NCBI GenBank assembly: GCA_963610315.1
Contig: CAVDMV010000003.1
Coordinates: forward strand, 39,146-103,145
Source of the DNA: Acutalibacteraceae bacterium
GTDB lineage: Bacteria > Bacillota_I > Bacilli_A > RFN20 > CAG-449
Direction: 5' to 3'
Length of the DNA: 64,000 bases
In this document: piece after piece, positions 2,946 through 63,906 of the stretch
How the letters are laid out: every line of letters starts with the position of its first letter
Position numbering within the stretch: the stretch's first letter is position 1
Notes under the pieces: generated by a model
What the model was told of the DNA's origin: nothing
The model's database searches: none
The model's input: only the letters and a program-made list of their open reading frames with translations
Made by a program: the position numbers and the translations under genes

Positions 2946-3584
2946 TTAATCAAATTTTAAATCTAGTATTTCTTCAAAGCTATTAATTGGATAATCCGTT
3001 TTATAACATTTACTTGCATAACTTATTCCAATAGTTTTAAATTTTCCGTTAATTCCGGCATTAATTCCTGAAATGGCATCTTCAACAATCACACATTCAC
3101 TTGGTGATAAATGAAGATATTCCGCGGCAAGTAAAAATACTTCGGGGTCAGGTTTGGCACGCGTTATATTAGTTCCATCACTAACTGCATCAAAATATTT
3201 TCTTAAATCTGTTTTTTCTAAGATTAATTTAGTATTTTTACTTGAAGAACCTACCGCTAGTTTATAGCCTCGTTTTTTTAATTCTTCTAAAGTTGATCTT
3301 ACATTATTAGGAACTTTTTGAGGCGACATATTTTCTAGATAAGTTTTATATATATCATTTTTATATTCAGCCATTTGTTCTTTTTCTTCTTCACTATATT
3401 GCTTATTAGAATAAGATAAAATAGCGTTTAAACTATCCATTCTTGAAAGTCCTCTTAATTCATCACTTATATTTTTATTAAAAGGAATATTTAATTTATC
3501 AGCTAATGCTTTCCAAGCTAAATAATGATATTCATCAGTTGATAATAAAACGCCATCTAGATCAAAGATAATACCTTTTATCAT
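2946..3584 (-). CDS. pgmB: beta-phosphoglucomutase (HAD superfamily)
   Basis: N-terminal FDLDGVL motif; AEYHYLAWKALA closely matches the beta-PGM consensus; length 212 aa; last gene of the sugar ABC operon. Confidence 0.85.
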   Translation of the reverse strand: MIKGIIFDLDGVLLSTDEYHYLAWKALADKLNIPFNKNISDELRGLSRMDSLNAILSYSNKQYSEEEKEQMAEYKNDIYKTYLENMSPQKVPNNVRSTLEELKKRGYKLAVGSSSKNTKLILEKTDLRKYFDAVSDGTNITRAKPDPEVFLLAAEYLHLSPSECVIVEDAISGINAGINGKFKTIGISYASKCYKTDYPINSFEEILDLKFD

Positions 3585-3671
3585 AATTCTCCTCCATTAT
3601 CTCTTAAAAACACAAAGTGAACCCCAAAGTTAGTTATCATCTAACCTTAAGATTCACTTTTTAATTATTTA

Positions 3672-5279
3672 TTATTCAATAGTTAAAGTACCTAAGCAAA
3701 GAAGTTCTTGTGATTCACGGTCAAATAACATGATATGATTACCTCTAAAACCTAATTTAATATCAGTTCCAATCATATAATCAACCGCGCCAAATTCATC
3801 ACCGGTCAGTAGATAGTTACCTACTTCTAAACGAATAGTTGTTTCTTTACCAGTAGGCATTGCGCTATAAACTTTTGCTTCAAGATTACCACCTTCATTA
3901 ATAGTGATATATTGTGATCTTACCCCAAGAACAAAGTCAAATTCATCGATAGTTGGATTATCTGGAACATCGATTGGTTGAGTAATTAATGGAATCTTAT
4001 AAGGGAATGGTCCATCTTTATTTGATTTATCTTCATTAACTGGACGAATATTCTTCTTAATTTCTTCACGACGTTTTTCTAAATCGAAATTTGGATCAGT
4101 TGGAGTAAAAATAGCCACTTTATCATCAAAGATTTTAAATTTAAAGGAATTACCTTCTTTTTTACCTCTTGCTTCAATTAAGTTAACTGCTGGGGTACCA
4201 ATAAAGTCCGCGACAAAGAGATTATTTGGATAATGATAAGTACGAATTGGAGGTTCATATTGTTGTAAAACACCATTATTCATTAAGCAAATTCTTGTTG
4301 CAAGAGTCATCGCTTCTAGTTGGTCGTGAGTAACATAAACGAAAGTCGCTCCTGTTTCCATATGGAGACGTTTTAATTCAGAACGCATTTCTAAACGTAG
4401 TTTTGCATCAAGGTTACTTAAAGGTTCATCCATAAATAAAACCTTAGGTCCAGGAGCTAAAGTACGCGCAATCGCGACACGTTGTTGTTGACCACCTGAT
4501 AATTCAGCAGGATAACGATCCATGAATTGAGTGATTTTTAATGTACGAGCTGAAGCACGTAATTTTAAATCGATTTCTTCAGGAGAAAGATGACGTACTT
4601 TTCTAATTGGATTACCATTTTCATCTAAATAACAATATTTATCATTTAGTTTGTCACCCTTCTTTTCGTGTTTGTCTAAGATCTTTTTAATTTCTTCATT
4701 TACTTTTTTTCTTTCTTCTTCTACTTTAGTTACTTCATAGCCTTTAGAAAGAAGTTTATAAGCTTTCTTTGCAGTAGGATAACTTACTTCAAAGAAATCA
4801 GTGATTTTAATAATCGCCGTTTCATCTTTAATTCTACCGTTTTTATCCGCGGCATCTTTAATTAAAGAAACAATCTTTTCTGGCTTATCTAAAACATTTA
4901 AATAATCATGTAAAGCGATTAAATCCCAATCATAGACATCCATTTCTTCATTGACATTCTTTAAACCAAAAGCAATGTTTTGATAAACTGTCATATTAGG
5001 CCATAAAGCATAGTTTTGGAATAAGAAACCAACATGACGTTTACTCGCAGAAACATTAATACCAAGTTCAGAATCAAAGACAACTTCATCACCGATAATA
5101 ATTCTTCCAGAAGTCGGAGTTTCAAGTCCTGCAATCATACGTAGCGTTGTAGTTTTACCACATCCAGATGGACCAAGTAATGTAACGAAACTATTATTAG
5201 GGATTTCTAAATTTAAATCATCAACGCCATAAAATTTACCCCATTTTTTATTGACGTGTTCTAATACAATTTTAGGCAT
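3672..5279 (-). CDS. sugar ABC transporter ATP-binding protein (MalK/MsmK-like) with a large inserted region
   Basis: Walker A GPSGCGKTT, Q-loop, LSGGQQQR signature, Walker B LFMDEPLSNLD; start taken at MPKIV (GGAGGAGG RBS), not the upstream in-frame Met; about 140 aa inserted between Q-loop and signature. Confidence 0.85.
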   Translation of the reverse strand: MPKIVLEHVNKKWGKFYGVDDLNLEIPNNSFVTLLGPSGCGKTTTLRMIAGLETPTSGRIIIGDEVVFDSELGINVSASKRHVGFLFQNYALWPNMTVYQNIAFGLKNVNEEMDVYDWDLIALHDYLNVLDKPEKIVSLIKDAADKNGRIKDETAIIKITDFFEVSYPTAKKAYKLLSKGYEVTKVEEERKKVNEEIKKILDKHEKKGDKLNDKYCYLDENGNPIRKVRHLSPEEIDLKLRASARTLKITQFMDRYPAELSGGQQQRVAIARTLAPGPKVLFMDEPLSNLDAKLRLEMRSELKRLHMETGATFVYVTHDQLEAMTLATRICLMNNGVLQQYEPPIRTYHYPNNLFVADFIGTPAVNLIEARGKKEGNSFKFKIFDDKVAIFTPTDPNFDLEKRREEIKKNIRPVNEDKSNKDGPFPYKIPLITQPIDVPDNPTIDEFDFVLGVRSQYITINEGGNLEAKVYSAMPTGKETTIRLEVGNYLLTGDEFGAVDYMIGTDIKLGFRGNHIMLFDRESQELLCLGTLTIE

Positions 5280-7161
5280 GTTTATTTTTACCTCCTCCGA
5301 TACCTGAGTCAATTGAAGCACCGGTTAATTTATTTACACCAAAGTTTGCGATTAAGACAAAGATAATAATTAATAAGTTAATCGCACTTGAGAAGGCTGA
5401 TAAGCCCATTTCATCATAATAAGATAATGATGTAGTCGCGATTTGATCGTTGTTTGTTACTAAGAACATGAATAAATTTAATTCACGCATACCAGTAATA
5501 AATGGTAATAAGTAACCTGAGATAATCGCGGATTTTTGAATAGGTATAACAATATGTGTCATACGTTTCCACCAAGGAGCCCCTTGAATAACGGCAGCTT
5601 CTTCAATTTCTGAAGATAATTGCATCATCGCGCTTAATGAAGAACGAGAAGCAAATGGAATATATTTAACAGATCCGCAGAGAATCATTAGGAACATTGC
5701 TCCTGCTGCTCCGGATATACCGGCATTTAATCCAAAGGCATGATATGCTGCTGAGAAAGCAACGGCTGGAATTAAATAAGGAAGGAACGAAATACCATTT
5801 ACATAACCTGCAAATTTATTCTTTCTCTTCTTTGATACACAATATCCAACTAAGAAGCCAAGAGTACCAGCAATAAGCGCACAGCTAACTGCAACTAAAG
5901 CTTGATTTCCAAATGATTTCCAAATATTTGTGTTATAGAAAATACCATAGTTACCATACATTCCAGCTTCACCATTTTCGTGATATGTCCACCATTTAGT
6001 TGTCCAAGATGAATAGTCTCCTGGGTTAGATAAGAACGTTTCAACACCGAAAGAAATAACAGGTAAGATAGAAGTAAAGGCAGTTAAGATAATTAAGATA
6101 ACTGCAATAACCCATTTACCAACTTTATTTAATTGAATCTTTGTTGCTTGAGCTGATTTACCAGAAACTGTAACGAATTGTTTTCTTGAAGTTAAAGAAG
6201 CTTGGTTAATAATTAAGATAATAAAACCGATAAGAAGCATTACAATACCGATAATAGAAGCAAATCCTTCACCAGTAATCGCTCTTAAATCAATGTAAGA
6301 AGTCGCAAGTACTTGGAAGTCTTTTCCGCCGACATAGTGAACGACTGGATAAGAACCAACTGCACTTGAGAAAACAAGTAAGATAGTTGAAAGTATCGCT
6401 GGAATAATCATTGGAATTGTAATTCTAAAGATGATTTTCCATTTTGGTGTATTTAAGATTGTCGCCGCTTCTTCAAGTGAAGCATCCATATTCTTAAAAA
6501 TACCACCGATTAAAATATAAGCAAATGCTGCATAGTGAATACCTAATACTAATGCTGAAGGGAATAAGCCTTGACACCACCATAAAGGGAAACGCCACGA
6601 AATTCCCATCTTAGAGAACATATAAGCAAAGAATCCATTAGAACCACCTGTTACATCCGCTGACCAGAATAAGTTTTTCCAAACAACTGCCAACGTCCAT
6701 TGAGGCATGATGTAAGGGAAAATGAAGATTGATGAAATCCACTTCTTACAAGGCAAGTTAGTTCTAGTAACTAAGAATGCCGCAATACCACCAAAAACTA
6801 AAGCAAACAAGCAACTTAACGTTCCTAGAAGTAACGAATTACCTAATGGAACCCAAAGATATTTATTCGCATAAGCGCCGCCGAAAAGATTAGCCCAGTT
6901 AGAAACTGAAAGTCCAACGGTATTATATCCATAGGCTTTTGCAAATTGCATTTCTTTACCAGCATGGACGGTAAATGAATTTTGAATAATAGACCAAAGA
7001 GGATAAAGAACTGCGAAAGATAACACTACACCCAATATTAGTAAAATTAAATTTTCAGGTCGAGAAATCCACGTGCCAACATGTGACATTACTTTATCCA
7101 TTGTTCCAGGAGTCTTTATATTACTAGAAGAATCTGAATATTCTTTTTTGTTTTTAAACAT
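5272..7161 (-). CDS. sugar ABC transporter permease (long, multi-span)
   Basis: Many predicted TM helices; start at MFKNKK with AAAGGAGA RBS; overlaps the ATPase start by 8 nt. Confidence 0.75.
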   Translation of the reverse strand: MFKNKKEYSDSSSNIKTPGTMDKVMSHVGTWISRPENLILLILGVVLSFAVLYPLWSIIQNSFTVHAGKEMQFAKAYGYNTVGLSVSNWANLFGGAYANKYLWVPLGNSLLLGTLSCLFALVFGGIAAFLVTRTNLPCKKWISSIFIFPYIMPQWTLAVVWKNLFWSADVTGGSNGFFAYMFSKMGISWRFPLWWCQGLFPSALVLGIHYAAFAYILIGGIFKNMDASLEEAATILNTPKWKIIFRITIPMIIPAILSTILLVFSSAVGSYPVVHYVGGKDFQVLATSYIDLRAITGEGFASIIGIVMLLIGFIILIINQASLTSRKQFVTVSGKSAQATKIQLNKVGKWVIAVILIILTAFTSILPVISFGVETFLSNPGDYSSWTTKWWTYHENGEAGMYGNYGIFYNTNIWKSFGNQALVAVSCALIAGTLGFLVGYCVSKKRKNKFAGYVNGISFLPYLIPAVAFSAAYHAFGLNAGISGAAGAMFLMILCGSVKYIPFASRSSLSAMMQLSSEIEEAAVIQGAPWWKRMTHIVIPIQKSAIISGYLLPFITGMRELNLFMFLVTNNDQIATTSLSYYDEMGLSAFSSAINLLIIIFVLIANFGVNKLTGASIDSGIGGGKNKHA

Positions 7162-7230: not shown

Positions 7231-8574
7231 TTATTTAATACCTGTATCGATCCAAGTACCAACAGTTACATCTTTTTCCGAGCAATAAGAGCCGTCTTCA
7301 ACAACCATATTACCCTTACCATCACCAGTACCTGTCCAGAATTCATAGCCTTTATCATTTAAGCAAGCAAATTCTGTTCCACCGTCTTGAGAGTGATCTT
7401 GATTAATACCAGCTGTATTATTTGAACAATATCCACCGATATCTTTGCCCCAAGCTTTAAATCCGTCATAAGTACAAGTCATAAAGTGAATAAATGCACA
7501 TGATGTCCATGGATATGGAGATGTTTTTAAAACTTGAAGATAATGTTTATACATGAATCCGCCGATACCTTTATAGCCATCTTGATAAGCTGCGATAGTA
7601 ACATTCTTCTTTGATGATTCTTCAGTTTCAGTAACAGAACGAAGTTTTGAATAAACTAAGAGGCCTGAAGCTCCTTTAGCTGACTTAGTGACTAATTCAT
7701 TACAAATTGGACCGTCATCTGATCTTTCTGCATATTGTTTTACAAATAATTGAATATACGCTAATGCATATTTTGCTGATTCATGAGTTAAGCCAAGTTG
7801 AGTTGCTTTTTCTTTTAAGCCATCTGCTGTAGTTTCAATACGTGCTTTTTGCGTAGCATCGCCAATTGCTTCATATGCAGTTTTAAGAATATCAGAATAT
7901 TTTTGTTGTGTAAGCATAATTAAGAAGTTACGACCAACAGGCTCTGAAGAAGGTTTCATAAATAATGGTGTTTCGCCTTCTCTAACGAAATCCCAACAGT
8001 TCATAAATGATTTAGTAGTATCTAAATTATTAAATTCAAATACTTTATTAAGTGATTGAAGTGCAAATGGTTCTTTATTATCTGCATCACCATTCCATTC
8101 CTTTGGTACATAATTTAAAAGATTACCTGTTTGAATTTCTTTTGCATCAATTTGGTTTGCGTCTTGAATAAGAGTCATTGCAATTGAATGATTAGAGCCA
8201 TTAACATCACTATCAATCATAGTGAAGATACTGTTTTCCTTTGGTTGAGTCCATTCAATTTGTCCGCTGAACTCTGGATTATAATAAGGGAATGCTTCTT
8301 GAACTGCAGTAGATGGATTTCCATCTGCATCATTACCTTTTAAATAGTTAATAAAATATTCTTTTGCAGTTTTACCTCTAGATGAATTACCAATACCTGT
8401 CATTGTTTTTCCATCTAATTCTTCCATAGCTTTTTTATAGAGGTCTTTAGCGTCAAGAGTCATTGCTTCTTCAATAACTTTTTCGACTTCTGACTTACTA
8501 GTTCCACCACAAGAAGTAAGTCCACCGAGTGTGGTTGCAGCAACTGCAAGTAATATTGCGATTTTTTTCTTCAT
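7231..8574 (-). CDS. sugar ABC transporter substrate-binding lipoprotein
   Basis: Signal peptide with lipobox LTSC-GG; about 450 aa; first gene of operon with permease and ATPase. Confidence 0.75.
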   Translation of the reverse strand: MKKKIAILLAVAATTLGGLTSCGGTSKSEVEKVIEEAMTLDAKDLYKKAMEELDGKTMTGIGNSSRGKTAKEYFINYLKGNDADGNPSTAVQEAFPYYNPEFSGQIEWTQPKENSIFTMIDSDVNGSNHSIAMTLIQDANQIDAKEIQTGNLLNYVPKEWNGDADNKEPFALQSLNKVFEFNNLDTTKSFMNCWDFVREGETPLFMKPSSEPVGRNFLIMLTQQKYSDILKTAYEAIGDATQKARIETTADGLKEKATQLGLTHESAKYALAYIQLFVKQYAERSDDGPICNELVTKSAKGASGLLVYSKLRSVTETEESSKKNVTIAAYQDGYKGIGGFMYKHYLQVLKTSPYPWTSCAFIHFMTCTYDGFKAWGKDIGGYCSNNTAGINQDHSQDGGTEFACLNDKGYEFWTGTGDGKGNMVVEDGSYCSEKDVTVGTWIDTGIK

Positions 8575-8665
8575 AAAAATCTAAATTTCCTTTCCACGGA
8601 GAGCCTAAGTCTTCCGCATATTGTGTCAAAGGATTAGTTTGATGAATCCCTTTCCATCTATCTTC

Positions 8666-8694
8666 AAGATAGAATGTAAGCGTTTACAAGTCAA
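8666..8694 (-). promoter_or_regulatory. putative sigma-A promoter (-35 TTGACT, -10 TATCTT) with a cre site (TGTAAACGCTTACA, plus coords 8675..8688) in the spacer
   Basis: cre matches the TGWAANCGNTNWCA consensus at all constrained positions; 17-nt spacing between hexamers. Confidence 0.5.
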
Positions 8695-9129
8695 TTTATT
8701 AAATATTTAAGTAACTAAAAAAACTTAAAAAACTTAAAAATATATTATTTCATCCGATTTTAACGAATAATTTAATTTCTTTATCATATTATTTATATAA
8801 AATCGTTTAAAAATATTTAAATTAACAAAAGCATTCGAATGTAAAAAAACTTGTTATATCAAAAACTGCAGTTCTTTATCCTTATAAAAATTGATTTTAG
8901 GTAAAAATCAACTATAATCTAATTAGTTGTTTCAAGAAAACAATTTTAATTCTATTAATTAACTTCTTACTTTAGATTTAATAAAAGAATTATCTTTAAA
9001 TTAAAATCCAACGAATTTTTAATATAAAATTAAGTGATGCAACCCATAGTTGCGTATTTGAAAACTAGAATGTATAGACCTCTTTTTCCTATTTTTATAA
9101 GATTAAGGTACTTCAAGGAGGAAAAAATT

Positions 9130-9867
9130 ATGAACATCAAAATATCAAATCGTTTAATCGAATTAAGAAAGAAATATGGTTATTCACAAGAGCAACTTGC
9201 TGAAAAACTAGGTCTTTCACGTCAAGCAGTATCTAAATGGGAAAGAGCCGAGGCAAGTCCCGATACTGATAATCTTATTTGTTTAGCTAAATTGTATAAT
9301 GTATCTTTAGATGAACTTCTCTCTACTGATGAAGAAGATATCGAATCAATTATTAAAGATAACAAAGAAAAGAATAATGATAACGAGAAAGAACAAGGTA
9401 TCTACATTAAAGATGGCGAAGACACTTTAACTATCAAAAATGGACAAATCCATATTGTAGGAAATGATGGAGATAGTGTTCACATAGCTGATGGAAAGAT
9501 TAACCTTAAGTCCAGTGATGGAGAAAACCTCACAATTAATTATAAGAAATGGATCTATAATATTTTTAAAAGTATCATCTTTGCTTTAGGATTTATCACC
9601 TATGTTGTTTTAGGTTTTGCTTTAAATAATGGGTGGGCATTATATTGGCCAGTTATCCTTATTTCTCTTAGTTTAGCTAGTATTGCTGACGCTATTGAAG
9701 CAAAGAAATTTTGTAATTTCTTATTCCCAGTTTTAATTAGTGGAATTTATTGTTTAATCGGAATGATATTTTCTTTATGGCATCCAATGTGGGTTATCTT
9801 TTTATCTATACCTATTTATTATGCAGTCTTTGAACCACTTGATAAATTTTTAAAACATAAAAAATAA
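9130..9867 (+). CDS. XRE-family HTH transcriptional regulator with C-terminal transmembrane domain
   Basis: AGGAGG RBS before MNIKISNRL; HTH motif YSQEQLAEKLGLSRQAVSKWE; three hydrophobic helices at the C-terminus; true start downstream of the ORF-track start. Confidence 0.8.
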   Translation: MNIKISNRLIELRKKYGYSQEQLAEKLGLSRQAVSKWERAEASPDTDNLICLAKLYNVSLDELLSTDEEDIESIIKDNKEKNNDNEKEQGIYIKDGEDTLTIKNGQIHIVGNDGDSVHIADGKINLKSSDGENLTINYKKWIYNIFKSIIFALGFITYVVLGFALNNGWALYWPVILISLSLASIADAIEAKKFCNFLFPVLISGIYCLIGMIFSLWHPMWVIFLSIPIYYAVFEPLDKFLKHKK

Positions 9868-52689: not shown

Positions 52690-53154
52690 TTAATTAATAA
52701 TATCAATAAATTCTGCTTCTACGTATTTAGCTAGAGTATTAGGTTCAATTTCAATTTGATAACCTACTTTTCCCGCCGAAACGCATATTGTATCAAATAA
52801 AATAGCAGTATCATTAATAATCGTTTTAAATTTCTTTTTCATTCCAATAGGAGAACATCCTCCATGAATATAACCAGTTAATGGAAGAAGTTCTTTTTGA
52901 TGAATCATTTCAATCGATTTAACTCCAACTGCTTTTGCTGCCTTCTTTAAATCTAACGAATGATTGACTGGAATACAAAAGACATAATAATTTTTATCAT
53001 TAGCTTTTGTCACTAATGTTTTAAATACTTGTTCTACGTCTTGAGATAAAGTTTTCGCAACTTCTTCTCCATTAGTGATAGAATTACTATAAGTATGCAT
53101 CTCATATTCAATTTTTGCTGCATCTAATAAGCGAGAAACATTAGTCTTTTCCAT
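52690..53154 (-). CDS. ybaK: YbaK/ProX-type aminoacyl-tRNA trans-editing deacylase (Cys-tRNA(Pro) deacylase)
   Basis: 154 aa; YbaK-like fold; 14-nt overlap with the upstream gene. Confidence 0.75.
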   Translation of the reverse strand: MEKTNVSRLLDAAKIEYEMHTYSNSITNGEEVAKTLSQDVEQVFKTLVTKANDKNYYVFCIPVNHSLDLKKAAKAVGVKSIEMIHQKELLPLTGYIHGGCSPIGMKKKFKTIINDTAILFDTICVSAGKVGYQIEIEPNTLAKYVEAEFIDIIN

Positions 53155-54421
53155 TTTCTTTACCTATATTTTCTCTTGCAAGCGCAAGCATTAATTTAAT
53201 TCTATTTTCTTGGTTAACTTTACTTGCCGATGAATCATAATCAATTGGAGTAATATTAGTTTCTGGATACAATGACTTTAATTTATTCATAACGCCTTTA
53301 CCGCAGACATGATTTGGTAAACAACCAAATGGTTGAGCGCAGACAATATTAGGATAACCTTCTTTAATTAGTTCTTTCATTTCCGCGGAAAGTAACCATC
53401 CTTCACCCATTTTAGCCCCATGTTTAATAACACCTAAGGATTCTTTTCTCGTTTCTTTAAATGGTTTCATTGGAGTAAAGGAAGAATATTTCTTAATTGA
53501 TTTAATCATTAATGTTTCATAATGAGTAATAAATTTTAATAAGAAGGTATTATAGATTTTCTTAGATAATTTAGTTCCATAATATCGATGATCATATTCA
53601 CCATTCGCAAAGCAATATAATAAGAAGCCAAATACACCAGGAACGCAGATTTCCGCCCCTTCAGAAATTAAGAATTGTTCAAGGTTATTATTACCGATTG
53701 AAGCATATTTAACATAAATTTCTCCAACAATACCAACTTTTGGTTTAGGTGTAATTTCAATAGGTAAAGAAGCAAAATCGTTAACGATAGCTTTTAAGTT
53801 CTTCTTAATTTGATGTAAAGAAGATCCTCTTCCATTTCTAAGTTCATTTCGTAAATAATTATTCCATTTTACTACTAATTCATCAGAACTACCTTTTTTC
53901 GTTTCATATGATCTAGTTTTATTATGTAAATACATAATGGTATCACCATAAGTAACCGCAGCAAGTAGATTCATTAAGAAAGGTAATGTAATATCAATAC
54001 CCTCTGATTTAGATAAATCTCCAAGATTTAAGGTAATAACTGGAACAAAGCCAAAGCCAGCATTTTCTAATGCTTTTCTAAGTAATGGTACGTAGTTAGT
54101 CGCTCGACATCCTCCACCAGTTTGAGTGAGAACTAACGCGACATGATGAACATCATCTTCATGTTTTAAAGCGTCGATAAATTGACCGATAACACATGTT
54201 GCAGGATAACAAGTATCGTTATGAACGTATTTTAGTCCTTCTTTAACTAAGATAGTTTCTTTATTTTGAAGGATTTTTGCTTTAAAACCCATCTTTTCAA
54301 TCGCCCCAGCGATTATATCCATATGAGAATCAAGGAAGGAAGGAACTAAAATAGTATGAGTTTTTTTCATTTCAGGAGTGAACTTAGGATAATCTAAAAT
54401 ATAATCTTTTTTATTTTCCAT
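53141..54421 (-). CDS. 2-hydroxyacyl-CoA dehydratase-like (HgdB/DUF2229-type) protein
   Basis: 426 aa; conserved Cys-containing dehydratase-like fold; translationally coupled to the activase gene (11-nt overlap). Confidence 0.55.
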   Translation of the reverse strand: MENKKDYILDYPKFTPEMKKTHTILVPSFLDSHMDIIAGAIEKMGFKAKILQNKETILVKEGLKYVHNDTCYPATCVIGQFIDALKHEDDVHHVALVLTQTGGGCRATNYVPLLRKALENAGFGFVPVITLNLGDLSKSEGIDITLPFLMNLLAAVTYGDTIMYLHNKTRSYETKKGSSDELVVKWNNYLRNELRNGRGSSLHQIKKNLKAIVNDFASLPIEITPKPKVGIVGEIYVKYASIGNNNLEQFLISEGAEICVPGVFGFLLYCFANGEYDHRYYGTKLSKKIYNTFLLKFITHYETLMIKSIKKYSSFTPMKPFKETRKESLGVIKHGAKMGEGWLLSAEMKELIKEGYPNIVCAQPFGCLPNHVCGKGVMNKLKSLYPETNITPIDYDSSASKVNQENRIKLMLALARENIGKENGKD

Positions 54422-57332
54422 TTTTTTCTCTCTCCTTTCCTTCTAATGCGGCGAGTAATGATCTAATTCTAATCTTTACCGCGCCTAAATTAGTGATTTC
54501 ATCAATCTTAATTTGGGTATATATTTTGCCATTTGATTCAAGTAATTTCTTTGTTTCATCAGTTGTAATTGCATCTAGTCCGCAGCCAAATGATACAAGT
54601 TGAATAAGGTTTACATCTTCATTATCTGAAGCAAATTTTGCTGCAGAATATAATCGTGCGTGATATGTCCATTGATTTAAAACGTTAGTTGCAAATTTCT
54701 TATTTAAGTGAGAAATACTATCTTCAGTAATAACCGCACAATTAAAACCTAAGATTAGTTTATCAATACCATGGTTTACTTCTGGATCTACGTGATATGG
54801 TCTACCAGCAAGAACAAAGATTCTTTTTTCTTCTTTTCTTGCTTTTGAAATAATGATTTGGCCTTGTTCACGGATATATTTTAAATAATTATCGTATTCT
54901 TCATATGCTTTTTTTGAAGCTTGTTGAATCTCTTTTTTAGAAAATCCACCAATACGATAATTTAAGATTTCAAGAATCTTCTTATTAAATTGTTTTTTAT
55001 CATGTAAAGATAAATAGTCTCTAATAAAGTTAATATCTTTTAATTTTTCAACATTATTAATAATAGTTTCAGGATAATAAGCGACAATTGGACAATTGTA
55101 ATGGTTTTGAGAAATACCTTCATCAATGTTATATGACATACATGGATAGAAGATTACTTTATAACCATCGTCAATTAATTTTTCGATATGTCCATGAACT
55201 AATTTAGCTGGGTAACAAGCCGTATCAGATGGAATTGTATGTTGTCCTTTATGATATAAACTAGGTGAAGAAAATCCTGAATTATGAACTTCAAAACCTA
55301 ATTCAGTAAAGAAGGTATACCAGAAAGGTAATAATTCATAATTATTTAAAACTAAAGGTAAAGCAATTTTGCCTCTTTTACCAGCTTTAGGTTCATAAGA
55401 CATTAATTTATTTTGAATAATTTTATAAAGATTATATTCATCAGATTGAGATTTCTTAGTAATAGGTTTTTCACATTTATTACCAGAGATAAATTTACTT
55501 CCATTATTAAATGTATTCATTGTTAATGCACAATGGTTATTACAGCCATTACAGTTAAAAGAAACTGTTTTAAAAGTAAATGAATTAATTTCGTCAAGAG
55601 AAATGATACTTGATTTTTCTAATTTTAATTCTTTCGCTTGTAAAGCAGAACCATAAGCTCCAGCAAGGCCAGCAATATTAGGACGAGTAACATTTAGATT
55701 TAATTCTTTTTCAAAGGCCCTTAAAACCGCTTCATTATAGAAAGTACCGCCTTGAACAACAATGTTTTTACCTAGTTCACTAGGATCTGCGACTCTAATA
55801 ACCTTATAGATTGCATTTTTAACTACAGACATCGATAACCCTGCAGAAATATTATCAATAGTCGCGCCATCTTTTTGTGCTTGTTTAACGCTAGAGTTCA
55901 TAAAGACTGTACATCTTGAGCCTAAATCTACTGGCTTTTTAGCGAGTAAACCAAGCTTAGAGAATTCTTCAATGTTATAGCCTAAAGCATTAGAAAATGT
56001 TTGTAAGAAAGATCCACATCCGGAAGAACAAGCTTCGTTTAAGAAGATGTTAGAGATAACTCCATTTTCAATTTTGAAGCATTTAATATCTTGTCCCCCA
56101 ATGTCGATAATAAAATCAACATTGTTATTAAAGTGTTTTGCAGCTTTAAAATGAGCCATCGTTTCAACAATACCATAGTCTAAAGAAAAGGCATTTTTAA
56201 TTAAATCTTCGCCATAGCCTGTTGAACAAGCACCTTTAATTTTAGTATCAGGATTAATCTCATAAATCTCTTTTAAAATATCTTTAAAAACGATTAATGG
56301 TTTACCTTGGTTAGGTAAATATTTTGTATAACGAATATTTTCATTATCATCGATTAAAACAACTTTTAAAGTAGTTGATCCTGAATCAACACCTAAATAT
56401 AAATTATCTTTATAGCCTTCTAATGGAAGAATATCGACTTTAGCAAGAGCATGTCTTTTTCTAAATGCTTCTAGTTCTTCTTCTGAGTTAAATAAAGGCT
56501 CGTTAAATGCATAATTTCCGCTTGCTTTAGATTCTTCAAAAAGTAATAATACATCATCTAATTTATATTTTTTACTCGCGCATAAAGCTGATCCTAATGC
56601 AACATAAAATAAAGAATTTTCTGGACAAGTACCTTTTAATTCTAATGATTCATCAAAGGAATTCCTAAGTTCTTCAATAAATGTTAATGGTCCACCTAAA
56701 TAAACGATATTACCTTTAATTTCTCTACCTTGTGCAAGTCCTCCAATAGTTTGATTAACAACTGATTTAAAAATAGATCTTGCAACATCTTCTTTAGATG
56801 CACCTTGATTTAAAAGAGCTTGAATATCAGTTTTCGCGAAAACTCCACATCTAGAAGCAATTGTATATGTTTTATTAGCTTTACTAGATAGTTTGTTCAT
56901 CTCATCAATAGAAACATTTAATAATGTTGCCATTTGGTCAATAAATGCACCAGTTCCTCCGGCACAAGTACCGTTCATTCTTACTTCTAAACCGTGATTT
57001 AAAAAGAGAATCTTTGCATCTTCTCCTCCAAGTTCAATAATACAATCAGTATCTTTTAAATAAGTTGTGGCAGCAATTCTAGTTGCATAAACTTCTTGTA
57101 CGAAATCAATATTTAAGCTTTGAGCGATTCCCATTCCCGCGGAGCCACTCATACCGATGAATACATTTTCATCTAATATGATATTTTTATCTTTTAATTC
57201 CTTAATTACTTTTAATAAATTTTCTTTAATATGGGAATAATGACGAGTATATGAAGAATAAATTAATTTACCTTCATCATTTAATACGACACATTTAATA
57301 GTTGTTGATCCAATATCTAATCCAATGCGCAT
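54411..57332 (-). CDS. CoA-substrate-specific enzyme activase-like protein: two BadF/BcrA/HgdC-type ATPase domains plus a C-terminal dehydratase-like domain
   Basis: Two ASKHA-fold repeats (IGLDIGSTTIKCVV...; LGVDSGSTTLKVVL...), CNGCNNHC cysteine cluster, about 330 aa C-terminal domain; start at MRIGLD after GGAGG. Confidence 0.7.
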   Translation of the reverse strand: MRIGLDIGSTTIKCVVLNDEGKLIYSSYTRHYSHIKENLLKVIKELKDKNIILDENVFIGMSGSAGMGIAQSLNIDFVQEVYATRIAATTYLKDTDCIIELGGEDAKILFLNHGLEVRMNGTCAGGTGAFIDQMATLLNVSIDEMNKLSSKANKTYTIASRCGVFAKTDIQALLNQGASKEDVARSIFKSVVNQTIGGLAQGREIKGNIVYLGGPLTFIEELRNSFDESLELKGTCPENSLFYVALGSALCASKKYKLDDVLLLFEESKASGNYAFNEPLFNSEEELEAFRKRHALAKVDILPLEGYKDNLYLGVDSGSTTLKVVLIDDNENIRYTKYLPNQGKPLIVFKDILKEIYEINPDTKIKGACSTGYGEDLIKNAFSLDYGIVETMAHFKAAKHFNNNVDFIIDIGGQDIKCFKIENGVISNIFLNEACSSGCGSFLQTFSNALGYNIEEFSKLGLLAKKPVDLGSRCTVFMNSSVKQAQKDGATIDNISAGLSMSVVKNAIYKVIRVADPSELGKNIVVQGGTFYNEAVLRAFEKELNLNVTRPNIAGLAGAYGSALQAKELKLEKSSIISLDEINSFTFKTVSFNCNGCNNHCALTMNTFNNGSKFISGNKCEKPITKKSQSDEYNLYKIIQNKLMSYEPKAGKRGKIALPLVLNNYELLPFWYTFFTELGFEVHNSGFSSPSLYHKGQHTIPSDTACYPAKLVHGHIEKLIDDGYKVIFYPCMSYNIDEGISQNHYNCPIVAYYPETIINNVEKLKDINFIRDYLSLHDKKQFNKKILEILNYRIGGFSKKEIQQASKKAYEEYDNYLKYIREQGQIIISKARKEEKRIFVLAGRPYHVDPEVNHGIDKLILGFNCAVITEDSISHLNKKFATNVLNQWTYHARLYSAAKFASDNEDVNLIQLVSFGCGLDAITTDETKKLLESNGKIYTQIKIDEITNLGAVKIRIRSLLAALEGKEREKNGK

Positions 57333-57482
57333 AACTTTCCTCCATTTCTCAAATATTATAAGAAGAAGTCGGTTAAAAAACAATAAATAAAAAATACTCT
57401 CTTATTATTTTAAAAAAATAATATATTTCATTTTATTTCTTAATATTATATAATTAGTTTGTATTTCCAAGGAGGATTAACT

Positions 57483-58541
57483 ATGGGATTATTTAACAAA
57501 AAACAATTATTAAAAGTTATTGAATTTGAAGACGAATCAAAAGACGTTTTAGTTAACAAATATCAACTTAAAGATCGTGATGAGATTATGAACTCTTCTA
57601 CATTAGTAGTTAGACCATCTCAAATAGCATTATTTGTTCATAAAGGTCAAGTTTGTGATGTCTTTGCACCAGGTACATATAAATTAGCAACTGAAAACAT
57701 TCCTTTCTTAACTAAATTATTAAGTTTACCTACAGGTTTTGATTCACCTATTAAAGCAGAAGTATATTTCATTAATACAAAACAAATCACTGGTTTAAAA
57801 TGGGGAACTCAAAATCCAATCATGATGAGAGATAACGACTTCGGTAACGTTAGATTAAGAGCGTTCGGTGTCTACTCTTTCAAAGTTAAAAACGCAAAAG
57901 TCTTTATGGAAGAAATGTTTGGTACAAATTCTATCTATAAAGCAAGTGATGTAGCAGAACAAATGAAACCAGTCATCGTTCAAGGTTTCTCTGATGCAAT
58001 CGCTGAAAGTAAAATTTCTGCTCTCGATTTAGCAGCAAATTACAAAGAATTCTCAACAACAATTTTAGCGAAGAACCAAGAAGAATTTGAAAAATTCGGT
58101 CTTGAATTATGCACATTAGTCATTGAAAATATTTCTCTTCCAGAAGAAGTTGAAAAAGCTCTCGACGAAAGAACAAAACTTGGTGTTCTTGAAGATAAGA
58201 TGGGTACTTACGCTCAATACAAAGCTGCAAATGCAATGGAAGAAGCAGCAAAGAATCCTAATGGAAACAATATGGCTGGCTTAGGTGTTGGTATCGGCGC
58301 AGGAGCAAATATCGGAGCAATGTTTGGTTCAGCTTTATCAAGCGCACAAAATAAACCAAAAGAAGCACCAACTTCAACTGCAACTAAGAAATGTCCACAA
58401 TGTGGTGCAGATGTTCCTTCAACAAGTAAATTCTGCCCAGAATGTGGTGAAAAAATGCCAGTAGCTAAATTCTGTTCTAACTGCGGAGCTAAATTACAAG
58501 AAGGCGCAAAATTCTGTCCTGAATGTGGAGAAAAACAATAA
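57483..58541 (+). CDS. SPFH/Band-7 domain protein with four C-terminal zinc-ribbon CxxC motifs
   Basis: AAGGAGG RBS; SPFH-like N-terminal domain; C-terminal CPQCG...CPECG...CSNCG...CPECG. Confidence 0.75.
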   Translation: MGLFNKKQLLKVIEFEDESKDVLVNKYQLKDRDEIMNSSTLVVRPSQIALFVHKGQVCDVFAPGTYKLATENIPFLTKLLSLPTGFDSPIKAEVYFINTKQITGLKWGTQNPIMMRDNDFGNVRLRAFGVYSFKVKNAKVFMEEMFGTNSIYKASDVAEQMKPVIVQGFSDAIAESKISALDLAANYKEFSTTILAKNQEEFEKFGLELCTLVIENISLPEEVEKALDERTKLGVLEDKMGTYAQYKAANAMEEAAKNPNGNNMAGLGVGIGAGANIGAMFGSALSSAQNKPKEAPTSTATKKCPQCGADVPSTSKFCPECGEKMPVAKFCSNCGAKLQEGAKFCPECGEKQ

Positions 58542-59611
58542 TGGAAAATGAAGAAGTAGTAACAAAAGAACTTGCTTCTAGTGATAAAAAATGTCCTACT
58601 TGTGCTTCGGAATTAAGTTTTGATCCTAAAACAAAAAAATTAAAATGTTGTTCATGTGGTAACACTTATGAATTTGATCAAGTTTTAAACAATGATAAAC
58701 ATGATTTAAATTTAGAAGAACAAAGTATCTCTACTAAAGAATGGGCTAATGAATCTAAGTTAGTAAAATGTTCTTCATGTGGGGCTAATATCATGATTAA
58801 TGGTTTAGCTATCACACAAGAATGTCCTTACTGCGGTTCTAAATATATCGTTGAAACTGATGAAGTTCCAGGTTTAAAACCTGACTGCGTCGTTCCATTT
58901 GCTTTTGATCAAGAAGATGCAAAAATCAAATTTAAATCAAAGATTAAAGGTAAGTTCTTTGTCCCTCATAAATTAAAAAAAGAATTCAAAGATGCTGATA
59001 TTAAAGGCATCTATATTCCTGCTTTCTCATTTGATGGAGAAACTAGATCTACTTATCACGGTACTGTTCAAGTATCTAAACAAGTCAAAACTAAAGATGG
59101 TTATAAAACAGTTTATGAAACTAGACCAATCTCTGGAACTTATGATTATGATTATTGTAACTTATTAGTTGAATCATCAACACAAATTAATAACGAACAA
59201 TTATCATCGATTACTCCATATAATCTTCATGAATCATATGCTTATAACAATGATTTCTTAAGAGGATATTATGTAGAACAATACGTTGATACTATTAAAG
59301 ATTGTCATTCTGTCGCAGAAAGTAGAGTTGGAAGTGATATTAAATCAGGTATTTCAAGTAAATATTCTGGTACCGTCACTTCATTATTTGTTGATACACA
59401 TTATTCAAACGAAAAATATAATTATCAATTATTACCTCTTTATTATGTTTCATTCTTATATAAAGAAAAAAGATATACAGCTTTAATGAATGGTCAAACT
59501 GGTAAAGTTGGTAAAGGATTACCTATTTCTAAATTAAAAGTCGCTCTTGTTGTATTTGTTGTATTAGTACTCATTGCACTTGTTGTATTCTTCATTATGA
59601 AATCAGAATAG
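58541..59611 (+). CDS. double zinc-ribbon protein with C-terminal transmembrane anchor
   Basis: TAATG stop/start overlap with the SPFH gene; CPTC...CCSCG and CSSCG...CPYCG ribbons; C-terminal hydrophobic helix. Confidence 0.6.
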   Translation: MENEEVVTKELASSDKKCPTCASELSFDPKTKKLKCCSCGNTYEFDQVLNNDKHDLNLEEQSISTKEWANESKLVKCSSCGANIMINGLAITQECPYCGSKYIVETDEVPGLKPDCVVPFAFDQEDAKIKFKSKIKGKFFVPHKLKKEFKDADIKGIYIPAFSFDGETRSTYHGTVQVSKQVKTKDGYKTVYETRPISGTYDYDYCNLLVESSTQINNEQLSSITPYNLHESYAYNNDFLRGYYVEQYVDTIKDCHSVAESRVGSDIKSGISSKYSGTVTSLFVDTHYSNEKYNYQLLPLYYVSFLYKEKRYTALMNGQTGKVGKGLPISKLKVALVVFVVLVLIALVVFFIMKSE

Positions 59612-59625
59612 AAAGGGGATTTAAA

Positions 59626-60003
59626 ATGAATAAAGTAAAAAGAAATAAAAAAATATACGCTATTATTGCCGCGGTAATTCTTGTTCTTGGTATTGGTTCA
59701 CTAGTCGGATCAGTATTTACATTAATTGCAGGAATTAGTAAATTCGGTCAAGAAAATCAATTAGTTTCCGCGATTATCGTTACCGTTGTTGGAGTATTAT
59801 TAGTTTTACTTGGAGGATTCTTAGTCGTCCTAGGTATTTATCATTTATGGATTGCTTCTGCATTAAAAGCAACAGATGGTAATATCGCTGAAGGAAATGA
59901 TCTTGCGAATAAAACAATCAACGCGAAAAAATGTCCTAAATGCGGCTGCACAAATACTCCTGGAGTAGATGTTTGCCAAAGTTGTGGTACAAAATTAGAT
60001 TAA
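59626..60003 (+). CDS. small two-TM membrane protein with C-terminal zinc ribbon
   Basis: GGGG RBS; two hydrophobic helices; CPKCGC...CQSCG. Confidence 0.6.
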   Translation: MNKVKRNKKIYAIIAAVILVLGIGSLVGSVFTLIAGISKFGQENQLVSAIIVTVVGVLLVLLGGFLVVLGIYHLWIASALKATDGNIAEGNDLANKTINAKKCPKCGCTNTPGVDVCQSCGTKLD

Positions 60004-60007
60004 GAAT

Positions 60008-60034
60008 AAAGCTTGGCTCTCGCCAAGCTTTTTA
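60008..60034 (+). terminator. Rho-independent terminator of the SPFH operon
   Basis: AAGCTTGGCtctCGCCAAGCTT followed by TTT. Confidence 0.75.
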
Positions 60035-60379
60035 GTTATCAATATGATTCATGACGCGATGAGTAAGCTCGTAACTTGCTTCATCCATCTTTCTTTTATG
60101 AATTTTAATATTAACAAAATGATAGATCCAAATCGCTAATAAAACAGTTGAAACGCCTAATAAAACCATAGATATAGTAAATAAGATAATATATGTTGTA
60201 TCTCTAGGTTTTGAATCTGAATATATTCCGGCTACAACAAAAAATAAAATAATACCTATCACATATCCTAAAATATAAAATAAAGCTAAGAATTTACTTT
60301 TCTTCTCATGGAGTAAGTAAATTCTTTTTTCTTCATCTCTAATTTTTATTAATTCTTCATTTCTAGTCATATTTTTCAC
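60032..60379 (-). CDS. small membrane protein (115 aa), hypothetical
   Basis: Two predicted TM helices; no homolog recognised. Confidence 0.4.
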   Translation of the reverse strand: MKNMTRNEELIKIRDEEKRIYLLHEKKSKFLALFYILGYVIGIILFFVVAGIYSDSKPRDTTYIILFTISMVLLGVSTVLLAIWIYHFVNIKIHKRKMDEASYELTHRVMNHIDN

Positions 60380-60511: not shown

Positions 60512-62038
60512 CTATTCAAATTCAATTGTCGCAGGTGGTTTACTAGTTACATCATAAAGTACACGGTTAACATTATGTACTTCATTAACAATTCGTCTAG
60601 AAACGACATCTAAGACATCATAAGGAATTTTTGCCCAGTCAGCCGTCATTCCATCAATAGAAGTTACGGCACGAATCGCGACTGAATAAGAATATGATCT
60701 TTGATCGCCCATAACCCCAACTGATTTATTATCAAGTAAAACAGTAAAATATTGCCATACTGATTTATCTAATCCAGCTTTCTTAAATTCTTCTCTTAAG
60801 ATTGCGTCACTATCTCTAACAATTTCAAGTTTATCTTCAGTGATATCACCAATAATTCTAATTGCTAAACCAGGTCCTGGAAAAGGTTGTCTATTGACGA
60901 GTTCATCATCAATTCCTAATGCTTTACCAAGTCTTCTAACTTCATCCTTAAATAATTTATTTAATGGTTCGAGAAGTTGGAATTTCATATCTTTAGGAAG
61001 ACCACCGACATTGTGATGTGATTTAATTGTTTGAGCCGTTTTTGTTCCTGATTCAATGACATCAGTATATAAAGTTCCTTGCGCTAAGAAAGAATAATCA
61101 CCGATTTTTGCTGATTCTTCATCGAATACTTTAACGAATGTATTACCAATGATTTTTCTCTTCTTTTCAGGTTCTCTAACATCTTTTAATAAGCCTAAGA
61201 ATAATTCACTCGCATCGATTTTTACTACATCAATGCCGAATTTCTTAAATCTTTCCATGACAATTTTAGCTTCGTCTTTTCTAAGTAGGCCATGGTCAAT
61301 AAACATACATTTTAATTGTGAACCGATCGCTTTTGAAATAAGTACTGCCGCGACAGTTGAATCTACTCCGCCGGAAATACCAAGTAGTACGTTCTTATCT
61401 TGAACTTTTTCTTTAATCGCTTTAATTTGTTCTTGAATATATGTATCCATATTCCAAGTACATGCACATTTACAAACTTTAACAACAAAGTTCTTTAAAA
61501 TTTGGAATCCACATTCTGAGTTATTAACTTCAGGATGGAATTGAACTGCATAAATATTTCTTGTTGTATCTTGAATACTAGCGATTGGACAATCAGTAGT
61601 TTTTGCAAGTACTTCAAAGCCTTTAGGTGCTTCAAAAACTCCATCTCCATGACTCATCCAAACGATTTGAGATTGTTTAGTTTCAGAAAAGATTATTGAA
61701 TCCTTAATAACGTTTAATTCTTTTCCCCCGTATTCTTTATTAACACAAGGTTTAACGCTTCCGCCGAAATGATGTGAAATATATTGCATACCATAGCAAA
61801 TGCCAAGAACTGGTACACCTAAAGAAAAGATTTCATCGTTACATCTAAATGATTTTGGATCATAAACTGAATTAGGTCCGCCGGAAAGGATAATTCCTTT
61901 GACGTTCTTACTTTTAATTTCTTCAATCGTAATATCGTAACTAACTAGTTCTGAAAATACTCCCATATCACGTATTCTACGTGCGATTAGTTGGTTGTAT
62001 TGACTACCAAAATCAATTACTAAGATTTCTTCTTCCAT
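60512..62038 (-). CDS. guaA: GMP synthase (glutamine-hydrolysing)
   Basis: Class I GATase N-domain plus ATP pyrophosphatase (SGGVDS) and dimerisation domain; ATG start (MEEEIL) with GGGAGG RBS, downstream of the TTG used by the ORF track. Confidence 0.93.
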
Positions 62039-62055
62039 AAAGCCTCCCAAAGAAC

Positions 62056-62232: not shown

Positions 62233-62256
62233 TAATCCTCCCCCATAGAGATATTA

Positions 62257-62327
62257 ATATCGTAGTCTCGCTATTTACGGCAGCGAGGTAGAGACTTTCG
62301 AACCAATCATCGAATTTATACGACCAA
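62257..62327 (-). ncRNA. purine riboswitch aptamer, guanine-type (C at the specificity position)
   Basis: Minus strand UCGUAUAA-AUUCGAUGAUUGGUUCGAA-AGUCUCUACC-UCGCUGCCGUAAAUAGCGAG-ACUACGA aligns block by block with the xpt aptamer (UAUAA, UCUACC, CCGUAAAU, GACUACG). Confidence 0.7.
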
Positions 62328-62410
62328 TTACATATTTAGTTTACTTGGTAAGATTGTTTATGTCTATATCAATTTTTTGAAAGCGATTTCATGAGCTTTC
62401 AACTATTCAA

Positions 62411-63847
62411 TTATTCTTCCTCTTTTGTTTCTTCTCCTGCTGGAGCAGTAACAACATCTTTAGGATCTCTTAAAGCTAAGTTAACCGCGATACCAAGTAA
62501 CATACTTACTGCAGTTGAAGTAATTGTAATTGCTGGATCATAAGCATCACCAAATTTTAATGATAGACCGCCGATACCTGAAACTAAGATAACACTTGCG
62601 ATAAAGATATTTTTAGATACATTGAAATCAACTTTTTCTTGAATGAGCATTTTAACACCGCTTGAAGCGATAAATCCATAAAGAATTAATGATACACCAC
62701 CAGTAACACAACCTGGAATTGTTTCAAGTAATGCTGTAAATGGAGTGAAGAAACCAACGACAATTGACATTAATGCTGCAAGGAAAACTACTTTAACTGA
62801 TGCAATACCTGTTGTACCAATAACCGCGACGTTTTCGCCATATGTAGTATTTGCCGCACCACATAAAGCACCTGATAATGCAGTTGCGATACCATCACCT
62901 GTTAATGTTCTCTTTAAGCCTGGTTCACCATTTAATAAATCTCTACCAATGATATTACCTAAGTTTTCATGATCACCGATATGTTCACAAACTGTAACTA
63001 ATGAAACTGGAACGAATAATAAGATAACTTCGCCAATTGTTGCCCAATCAAAGTTCTTAATTGATTCAAATCTTAAGAACATAAATGATTCTGGATCATC
63101 TGGAACAAACATCTTGTAATTAAAGATTGATGAGAAATCAAATTCAGTAAAGATTTTTGTTAATGGAGTGAAATTAACAATATTGAAATATTCATTACCA
63201 CATGCAGTATATCCAATTAAAGTAACAACTACCGCGAAGATATATCCGCTGCCCATACCAATAACGAATGGGATTAAGCTTGCCATCTTACCTTTACCAT
63301 AGTGAGATGCTAAAGCTGTTGCAAATAAAGCGACTAATCCACAAAGAATGGCCATTAAATTATATGATGAATTAGAAGTAGTTAAATTACTAACTGCTGA
63401 ACTAGATAAGCCTAAACCGATGACCATGATGACTGGACCAACAATGACTGGAGGTAAAACTTTATCTAACCAAGAAGTACCAACAAATTTAACAAGTAAA
63501 GCAATAACACAATAAACTAAGCCTACTAGAGCCATACCAATGATTAACGCTAAGTAGTTTCTTCCACCAGCATTATTAATTAAGCCGACTGCTAACGCAC
63601 TTGCCATTGGTGAAATGTAAGCAAAGCTTGAGCTTAAGAAGACTGGTGATTTCATCTTTGTAATTAATAAATAACAAATTGTACCTAGACCTGCTGATAC
63701 TAATGTCGCTGCAATTGGTAAACCTGTAAGAATAGGTACTGTAATACAAGCAACGAGCATTGCAAGAATGTGTTGAATCGCAAAGATAATCCAGTGCGAA
63801 ACTTTTTTAGGTGTTTCTTCAACATCTAGAACTAAGTTCTTTTCCAT
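62411..63847 (-). CDS. nucleobase:cation symporter (NCS2 family; xanthine/uracil permease)
   Basis: About 478 aa, 12-14 TM helices, NCS2 conserved segments; start at MEKNLV after GGGGGAGG RBS. Confidence 0.85.
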
Positions 63848-63874
63848 ATTATATCCTCCCCCGTAAATTTTCCT

Positions 63875-63906
63875 AAAAAAAAGGTCAACCGACAATGGTT
63901 GAACCG
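63875..63906 (-). terminator. leader terminator/attenuator immediately upstream of the permease RBS
   Basis: GGTTCAACCattgtCGGTTGACC followed by UUUUUUUU on the minus strand, then the RBS. Confidence 0.5.

Follow-up and report, generated by a model that had tools for sequence, protein, structure and literature searches.

Proteins of the SPFH family are universal, and their role in bacteria is still debated. To our knowledge, the YdjI/SamI branch is the one case of a soluble SPFH protein that is brought to the membrane by dedicated anchors and is linked to the ESCRT-III-like protein PspA. The subject here is a three-gene operon at positions 57,483 to 60,003 of a 64,000-nucleotide stretch of contig CAVDMV010000003.1 (assembly GCA_963610315.1) from an Acutalibacteraceae bacterium, the whole of which is referred to below as the window. 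Gene 1 of the operon encodes an SPFH protein, gene 2 encodes a zinc-ribbon protein with a C-terminal transmembrane (TM) segment, and gene 3 encodes a small membrane protein with a zinc ribbon of its own. The operon probably specifies a membrane complex on the cytoplasmic face that is a divergent relative of the SamG/SamI module of Bacillus subtilis.

The B. subtilis operon pspA-ydjGHI has been renamed pspA-samGHI. In this operon ydjI encodes a band-7 protein that carries a C-terminal zinc ribbon, YdjG consists of two zinc ribbons, an uncharacterized domain and a TM segment, and YdjH is a membrane protein with a TPM domain (PMC11237479; PMC8581546). The domain architecture of YdjG- and YdjI-type proteins was described by Ravi et al. 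(PMC11237479), and the localization, interactions and mutant phenotypes of YdjI and YdjG have been published (PMC8581546; bioRxiv 10.64898/2026.02.06.704340). YdjG contacts YdjH, which in turn contacts both YdjI and PspA, and removing either of the genes ydjG and ydjH results in loss of the membrane foci formed by YdjI and PspA (PMC8581546). In a 2026 preprint, SamG and SamH are proposed to form a sensor complex that is restrained by SamI, the latter probably in the form of a higher-order oligomer (bioRxiv 10.64898/2026.02.06.704340). The logic proposed for the Bacillus proteins and their relatives, in which small membrane sensors work with a peripheral protein, regulator or effector, at the cytoplasmic side, is shared with the PspABC system of Escherichia coli. 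The operon described here has no homologs of PspA, PspB or PspC, and its likeness to PspABC is an analogy by way of the Bacillus system.

Homology to the pspA-samGHI operon

A Bacillus reference locus (L003), retrieved with a degenerate pattern from the published ydjG primer, contains the genes for PspA (1976-2659), YdjG (2725-3750), YdjH (3750-4508) and YdjI (4539-5510), and its YdjH was confirmed as a TPM protein (E 1e-23). Gene 1 aligns with Bacillus YdjI/SamI at 28% identity over residues 4-338 of the former and 3-322 of the latter (BLASTP, E 3e-40), an alignment that includes the ribbon. Gene 2 aligns with Bacillus YdjG/SamG end to end, its C-terminal TM helix included, also at 28% identity (BLASTP, E 2e-43), and the family alignment that includes Bacillus YdjG has all eight cysteines and the motif MNGQTG in common. 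Judged by these alignments, gene 1 belongs to the YdjI/SamI family and gene 2 to the YdjG/SamG family. The YdjG family is a large one: of 1.84 billion cluster representatives searched by profile, 2,571 match it at E <= 1e-30 and 9,237 at E <= 1e-3.

In both operons a third membrane protein is encoded right after the YdjG-family gene, and beyond this the two depart from each other. The order of genes is SPFH, YdjG-like and third gene in the window, whereas it is pspA, G, H and I in Bacillus. The third protein is a hairpin of two TM helices with a zinc ribbon (125 aa) in the window and the TPM-domain protein YdjH in Bacillus. Gene 1 carries two zinc ribbons where Bacillus YdjI has one, and pspA, which is part of the Bacillus operon, was not found in the window. 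A first-pass annotation, made from the sequence without database searches, had described the three proteins as an uncharacterized complex; this does not hold for genes 1 and 2, which are full-length homologs of proteins that have already been studied. That annotation had also named the assignment of gene 2 to a well-characterized family as a finding that would count against it. Such a family does exist in the sense that it is known and has been studied genetically, but it has no Pfam model for its core and no known biochemistry.

Operons that combine genes for SPFH, YdjG-like and TPM proteins occur in metagenomic loci of the YdjG clade (for example L053/L061, L057 and L049). These share the gene order of the window and have no adjacent pspA, but unlike the window operon they carry a TPM domain in the third gene (E 4e-23 in L053). 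Their YdjG-like genes are approximately 23-27% identical to gene 2 of the window and 30-34% identical to Bacillus YdjG, and for their SPFH genes identity to gene 1 is no more than 24-27%.

Organization of the operon

The elements of the operon are as follows.

57469-57475, plus strand: Shine-Dalgarno sequence AAGGAGG of gene 1, read from the sequence, 7 nt before the ATG at 57483
57483-58541, plus strand: gene 1, open reading frame (ORF) of 352 aa
57576-58184, plus strand: SPFH / Band_7_1 domain, residues 32-234 of gene 1, from Pfam coordinates and Foldseek SPFH matches
58386-58532, plus strand: four CxxC knuckles forming two zinc ribbons, residues 302-350 of gene 1, from the Pfam families DZR, Zn_Ribbon_1 and Zn_ribbon_3
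58541-59611, plus strand: gene 2, ORF of 356 aa
58589-58843, plus strand: two N-terminal zinc ribbons of gene 2 (C18/C21/C36/C39 and C77/C80/C95/C98), from invariant alignment columns
58868-59524, plus strand: central alpha/beta domain of gene 2, residues ~110-328 (~220 aa), ending in the invariant MNGQTG, without a Pfam model
59540-59599, plus strand: C-terminal TM tail anchor of gene 2, residues 334-353, from the sequence and an AlphaFold 2 (AF2) helix at 331-355, with only 3 residues beyond
59626-60003, plus strand: gene 3, ORF of 125 aa
59929-59991, plus strand: zinc ribbon of gene 3 (C103/C106/C117/C120), of which C103, C106 and C117 are invariant in the 22-member family
60008-60031, both strands: bidirectional intrinsic terminator with a 10-pair stem, 5 G-C pairs and a T-run, from the terminator scan

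The TAA of gene 1 (58539-58541) shares one base with the ATG of gene 2 (58541-58543) to give TAATG, while gene 3 follows gene 2 after a gap of 14 bp and has its own AAAGGGGA. The terminator is common to the operon and to the convergent gene at 60032-60379; a scan of 3.6 kb returned four terminator-like sites where 1.2 were expected. A promoter scan returned 19 sites compared with 18.8 in shuffled sequence, and no promoter is claimed. Homologs at E < 1e-200 exclude the possibility that genes 1 and 2 are chance ORFs. The three-gene operon that the first-pass annotation had outlined, with its AAGGAGG ribosome-binding site, TAATG overlap and terminator, is thus present in all of its parts. The domain layout given there was correct for gene 2 (two N-terminal ribbons, a globular domain and a C-terminal TM anchor, borne out by the invariant cysteines, an AF2 domain of ~220 aa and the helix at 331-355) and for gene 3 (two TM helices and a C-terminal ribbon, borne out by family alignments of 22 homologs). 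For gene 1 the SPFH assignment was right, whereas what was called "four zinc-ribbon motifs" is a set of four CxxC knuckles, which amount to two ribbons.

Conservation of the unit across loci

The loci compared come from exact-protein look-ups and from a search with the gene 2 alignment, which returned 50 metagenome loci. The clade to which the window belongs (clade A) comprises 39 distinct loci in which identity to gene 2 is at least 33%. Where the sequence leaves room for it, gene 2 is immediately preceded by a homolog of gene 1 in 33 of 36 clade-A loci, mostly with an overlap or at a distance within 10 bp, and gene 1 homologs in related loci are 58-83% identical. A gene-3 homolog lies directly downstream in 24 of the 31 clade-A loci with room, at a spacing of 9-75 bp (418 bp in one locus). 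The claim of the first-pass annotation that the genes form a coherent membrane module with ribbons on every subunit is supported by this synteny. The triad recurs with unrelated flanks in metagenome-assembled genomes labeled Candidatus Onthovivens, Anaeroplasma and Bacilli.

A TPM gene follows gene 2 in none of the 31 clade-A loci, whereas in the YdjG clade, the loci whose gene-2 relative is closer to Bacillus YdjG, a TPM/YdjH gene comes next in all nine loci and gene 3 in none of them. Gene 3 thus occupies the place that YdjH/SamH has in the Bacillus-type operons, next after the YdjG-family gene, and by this pattern of gene order gene 3 and TPM/YdjH are mutually exclusive, alternative third subunits. 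Hidden small ORFs resembling gene 3 were sought in the loci that seemed to lack it and none were found, so the absence is real; the next genes in these loci are housekeeping genes such as gyrB, hisS and tilS. Gene 1 is missing in three clade-A loci. The usual core of the system is the SPFH-YdjG pair, to which one subclade commonly adds gene 3 as an accessory.

Several loci have features of their own. In the Candidatus Onthovivens loci L010 and L012 the triad lies between a DpnII restriction-system gene and, downstream, an ASCH gene plus an SLFN/AlbA_2-HATPase_c_4 gene (4025-4783, 7779-9511), a setting that is defense-like; a third contig of the same species (L011) is without the downstream pair, and this flank is therefore variable. 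Locus L055 (4989-6898) has two YdjG-like genes in tandem (313 and 319 aa), both highly divergent with 21-25% identity to the references; no SPFH, TPM or gene-3-like neighbor was detected next to them. In L044 (3584-4982) a clade-A homolog of gene 2 occurs without gene 1 and gene 3 and is preceded by genes for small proteins of 156, 128 and 181 aa; all three have three predicted TM helices and may be another alternative set of membrane partners.

The SPFH protein

Gene 1 matches Band_7_1 (PF13421) with a Pfam E-value of 7e-77 and a score of 258 bits against a cut-off of 24. The Band_7_1 domain is followed by a short helical region, a Gly/Ala-rich linker and the double zinc ribbon, in which C304, C307, C318, C321, C331, C334, C345 and C348 are invariant among 44 homologs. 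The AF2 model has a predicted local distance difference test (pLDDT) score of 67.6, with a better core. Comparison of the model with the PDB by Foldseek returned 51 chains at E <= 1e-3, and among the matches listed the top ones are all SPFH proteins (stomatin, HflK/C, prohibitin, flotillin, erlin, QmcA and the major vault protein). A crude Kyte-Doolittle scan of gene 1 found no hydrophobic 19-mer over the threshold, and the AF2 model has no TM-like helix; the gene 1 product is soluble, without a membrane anchor of its own.

Gene 1 has the SPFH fold in common with the proteins of cage-forming complexes such as HflK/C-FtsH, QmcA-YbbJ, stomatin, prohibitin and flotillin (Foldseek E-values from 1e-9 to 1e-6), and a role as a membrane-associated oligomeric scaffold is expected of it, as in those complexes. 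Unlike the cage-forming proteins, gene 1 lacks a TM or hairpin anchor and has a much shorter helical region, after which come the Gly-rich linker and the zinc ribbons. The operon also differs from those of the HflK/C-FtsH and SPFH-NfeD types in having no NfeD or protease partner, and Bacillus YdjI attaches by way of separate anchor proteins.

The number of CxxC knuckles at the C terminus of the SPFH protein varies, with two in Bacillus YdjI, four in the window and most of its clade, and six in others; the variation is exemplified by loci L020, L029, L036, L051 and L063. No feature of the system is as plastic as the number of ribbons.

The YdjG/SamG homolog

The eight cysteines of gene 2 form four CxxC pairs that are invariant in alignments of 36 and 72 sequences, Bacillus YdjG included. 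Sub-threshold matches to Zn_Ribbon_TF and other ribbon families were obtained for 53-69 of the 72 family members. The AF2 model, which has very high confidence (pLDDT 94.8, predicted TM-score 0.88), consists of two ribbons, helices, the TM helix and two pairs of unusually long strands (152-184/187-211 and 278-307/310-317). A Pfam scan of the 72 family members returned zinc-ribbon families only and no model for the core domain, profile searches of PDB sequences returned ribbon matches only, and the core domain had no significant fold match in the PDB. The central domain of YdjG/SamG has been claimed to adopt an NTF2-like fold related to YpeB (PMC11237479). With its single C-terminal TM helix, gene 2 is likely to be tail-anchored, such that its ribbons and the ~220-aa domain, which are the bulk of the protein, would face the cytoplasm. 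This topology is supported by the zinc ribbons if these are taken as cytoplasmic.

The only significant structural matches to the gene 2 model are two giant-virus proteins in BFVD, A0A5K0UBJ7 and A0A3G4ZSZ8 (from Yasminevirus and Edafosvirus), which are annotated as "DnaJ-like subfamily C member 3". The matches have Foldseek E-values of 9e-9 and 3e-6 and TM-scores of 0.33-0.44 over ~250 columns, which suggests that the core domain is also present in nucleocytoplasmic large DNA viruses.

The two-helix zinc-ribbon protein

Gene 3 begins with the positively charged sequence MNKVKRNKK, which is followed by two hydrophobic helices (residues ~10-37 and 46-77) joined by a loop of 8 residues. After the second helix comes a juxtamembrane motif, A82-T83-x-G85-S/N-I-A-E, that is conserved in the family alignments, and then the C-terminal ribbon. 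Gene 3 evolves rapidly, and a word-indexed search recovered only five relatives; the family was gathered instead by synteny and with a hidden Markov model (HMM) built from downstream ORFs. The homologs are 115-152 aa long, with two or three predicted TM helices and one or two ribbons (HMM E-values of 1e-34 to 1e-50), and Pfam Zn_Ribbon_1 matches 19 of the 22 family members. Neither the hairpin of gene 3 nor the core of gene 2 matches a Pfam or NCBIfam family above curated cut-offs, the matches being limited to zinc ribbons and sub-threshold TM families. Gene 3 does not align with Bacillus YdjH and has no TPM domain; it is not a YdjH.

The N terminus and the zinc ribbon of gene 3 are likely to be cytoplasmic, and the zinc ribbons of all three proteins are predicted to lie on the cytoplasmic face. 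Almost nothing is then left outside the membrane, namely the 8-residue loop of gene 3 and the 3-residue tail of gene 2. With hardly any residues outside and no extracytoplasmic TPM domain, sensing would have to take place from within or beneath the bilayer.

Genomic neighborhood

The neighbors of the operon in the window include a BcrAD/BadFG-type activase, guaA with a purine riboswitch, a purine/uracil-type permease, an M42 peptidase and an ABC transporter, so that the operon has a native setting among housekeeping genes. Recent horizontal acquisition was considered and is disfavored by the G+C content, which is uniform at ~30% over the operon and its flanks and makes the operon look native. 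In agreement with the first-pass annotation, which had noted the lack of an NfeD or protease partner, no gene for either adjoins the operon in the window or the triad in related loci. A kinase, transcription factor or sigma factor gene linked to the triad was likewise not found in the loci examined, and tblastn detected no YdjH homolog in the window.

The convergent gene at 60032-60379 (minus strand) encodes a protein of 115 aa with two predicted TM helices that has weak, sub-threshold similarity only, to the Mycoplasma-type membrane families MAG1210, MSC_0882 and MAG0920, and the gene is not kept beside the triad in other loci. Beyond it, a purine riboswitch aptamer (Rfam RF00167, 75 bits) at 62243-62343 (minus strand) lies between Xan_ur_permease (62411-63895, minus strand) and guaA (60512-62050, minus strand) and presumably controls guaA. 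On the other side, and divergent from the operon, the region 53141-57383 (minus strand) encodes a 990-aa fused double BcrAD/BadFG ATPase with DUF2229, of the CoA-enzyme activase type, followed by an overlapping gene for a 426-aa protein with no Pfam match at E <= 1e-5. These genes look like a 2-hydroxyacyl-CoA-dehydratase-activase-like pair.

Possible functions of the complex

Homology, architecture, SPFH fold, translational coupling and conserved gene order are established by the results above. We infer complex formation, topology, recruitment and a stress-related function, and propose the following sequence of events. Gene 2 and gene 3 would form the membrane anchor, with gene 3 as the second membrane subunit, and by analogy with B. 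subtilis this pair would recruit the soluble gene 1 protein to the membrane. Gene 1 would then oligomerize at the inner face of the membrane, and the resulting SPFH scaffold would stabilize the stressed membrane, restrain signaling by its membrane partners, or both. The complex would thereby serve in membrane-stress protection or signaling, and it may function independently of PspA or together with an ESCRT-III/PspA protein whose gene lies elsewhere. The extra ribbon of gene 1 and the ribbon of gene 3 suggest, speculatively, that ribbon-mediated contacts replace those made by YdjH.

Several observations weigh against a function equivalent to that of the Bacillus module. A tblastn search of the window with Bacillus PspA gave a best E-value of 2.5, so that no PspA homolog was detected, and there is no Pfam match to PspA within ~6-8 kb of the triad in the annotated loci (L010-12, L063-65); PspA is the known output of the Bacillus system, and it may be absent here. 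The contact for YdjI and PspA in two-hybrid assays of the B. subtilis proteins is YdjH, which is missing here and has no sequence in common with gene 3. Identity to the characterized Bacillus proteins is only 28%, and the window proteins constitute a separate clade whose function may have diverged. Finally, gene 3 is missing in 7 of the 31 loci and so is not essential to the gene 1/gene 2 pair.

It is conceivable, though rather unlikely, that the complex is a signaling device and not a structural scaffold, with the SPFH protein as its brake and the membrane-tethered TFIIB-like ribbons of genes 2 and 3 binding and sequestering a cytoplasmic regulator or nucleic acid. Such a device would match the proposed model in which SamI restrains signaling by SamGH, a model that includes constitutive SamGH signaling inferred in a samI mutant (bioRxiv 10.64898/2026.02.06.704340). 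The ribbon of YdjG is of a type known to bind DNA (Popp et al.), and all eight ribbon cysteines of gene 2 are invariant in the family. Zinc ribbons of this kind, however, are generic interaction modules, the triad is not linked to a transcription factor, kinase or sigma factor in the loci examined, and no output pathway is known even in B. subtilis. A signaling role for the tethered ribbons is in any case compatible with the preferred explanation of a SamG/SamI-like membrane complex. It is far less probable that the SPFH protein serves, in the style of HflK/C-FtsH or SPFH-NfeD, as the scaffold of a membrane protease or quality-control machine, with the protease encoded elsewhere. The fold of gene 1 does match HflK/C and QmcA, and one locus (L063) has an FtsH gene ~4.6 kb upstream of the pair. 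Gene 1 has no TM anchor, however, and in place of the long coiled coils of HflK/C-type proteins it has only a short helical region. The conserved partner of gene 1 is a YdjG homolog and not a protease, and neither the window nor the related loci have an NfeD or protease gene adjacent to it.

An anti-phage or abortive-infection module, in which gene 3 would be a permeabilizing effector of the SLATT or holin type with two TM helices that is held in check by the SPFH and YdjG proteins, is also very improbable. Sub-threshold matches of the gene 3 family to SLATT_1 (3 of 22 members, best E 7e-5) and to Phage_holin_3_6 (3 of 22), together with the position of the Onthovivens triad between a DpnII gene and an SLFN/AlbA_2-ATPase gene, point in this direction. 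The SLATT_1 score of gene 3 is 20.1 bits against an NCBIfam cut-off of 41, however, and with only 3 of the 22 members at E <= 0.01 it looks like similarity between hydrophobic helices. PADLOC returned no match for gene 1 and only weak ones for genes 2 and 3, mostly in zinc-ribbon regions (E >= 2e-4, <= 19 bits). The operon is native in composition, it and most other loci have housekeeping neighbors (guaA, gyrB, hisS, tilS), and gene 1, at 58-83% identity across related loci, is unlike defense genes with their fast turnover. Nor is there much to recommend the idea of a wholly new zinc-ribbon/SPFH complex without known relatives. The core of gene 2 and the hairpin of gene 3 match no family above the cut-offs and the former has no fold match in the PDB, but the full-length homology of genes 1 and 2 to YdjI and YdjG refutes this idea for both and leaves it standing only for gene 3, and the architecture has already been published (PMC11237479).

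The reading of the operon as a relative of the SamG/SamI module can be taken a step further, although the step is a doubtful one. In low-G+C gut Bacilli and Mollicutes-like lineages the SPFH-YdjG pair might have become a membrane-integrity system that is complete in itself, independent of both PspA and TPM, with the lineage-specific gene 3 as a new subunit. Gene 3 could in that case be a new anchor that nucleates SPFH assembly by ribbon-ribbon contacts, or a holin- or SLATT-like effector that is kept closed by the scaffold.

Significance of the variant

No new class of system is revealed by the operon. The module is a variant of the known YdjI/YdjG (SamI/SamG) system, and what is new in it is gene 3 together with the absence of a TPM partner and of an operon-linked pspA. 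The comparison also draws attention to a large YdjG family whose core domain has no Pfam model or solved structure. The variant shows the SPFH-YdjG pair as a conserved core in which the third subunit is interchangeable, being a TPM protein in some loci and a two-helix zinc-ribbon protein in others, and for which linkage to pspA is dispensable at the level of the operon. It is in this respect a natural experiment that separates the scaffold and signaling roles of the pair from the recruitment of PspA.

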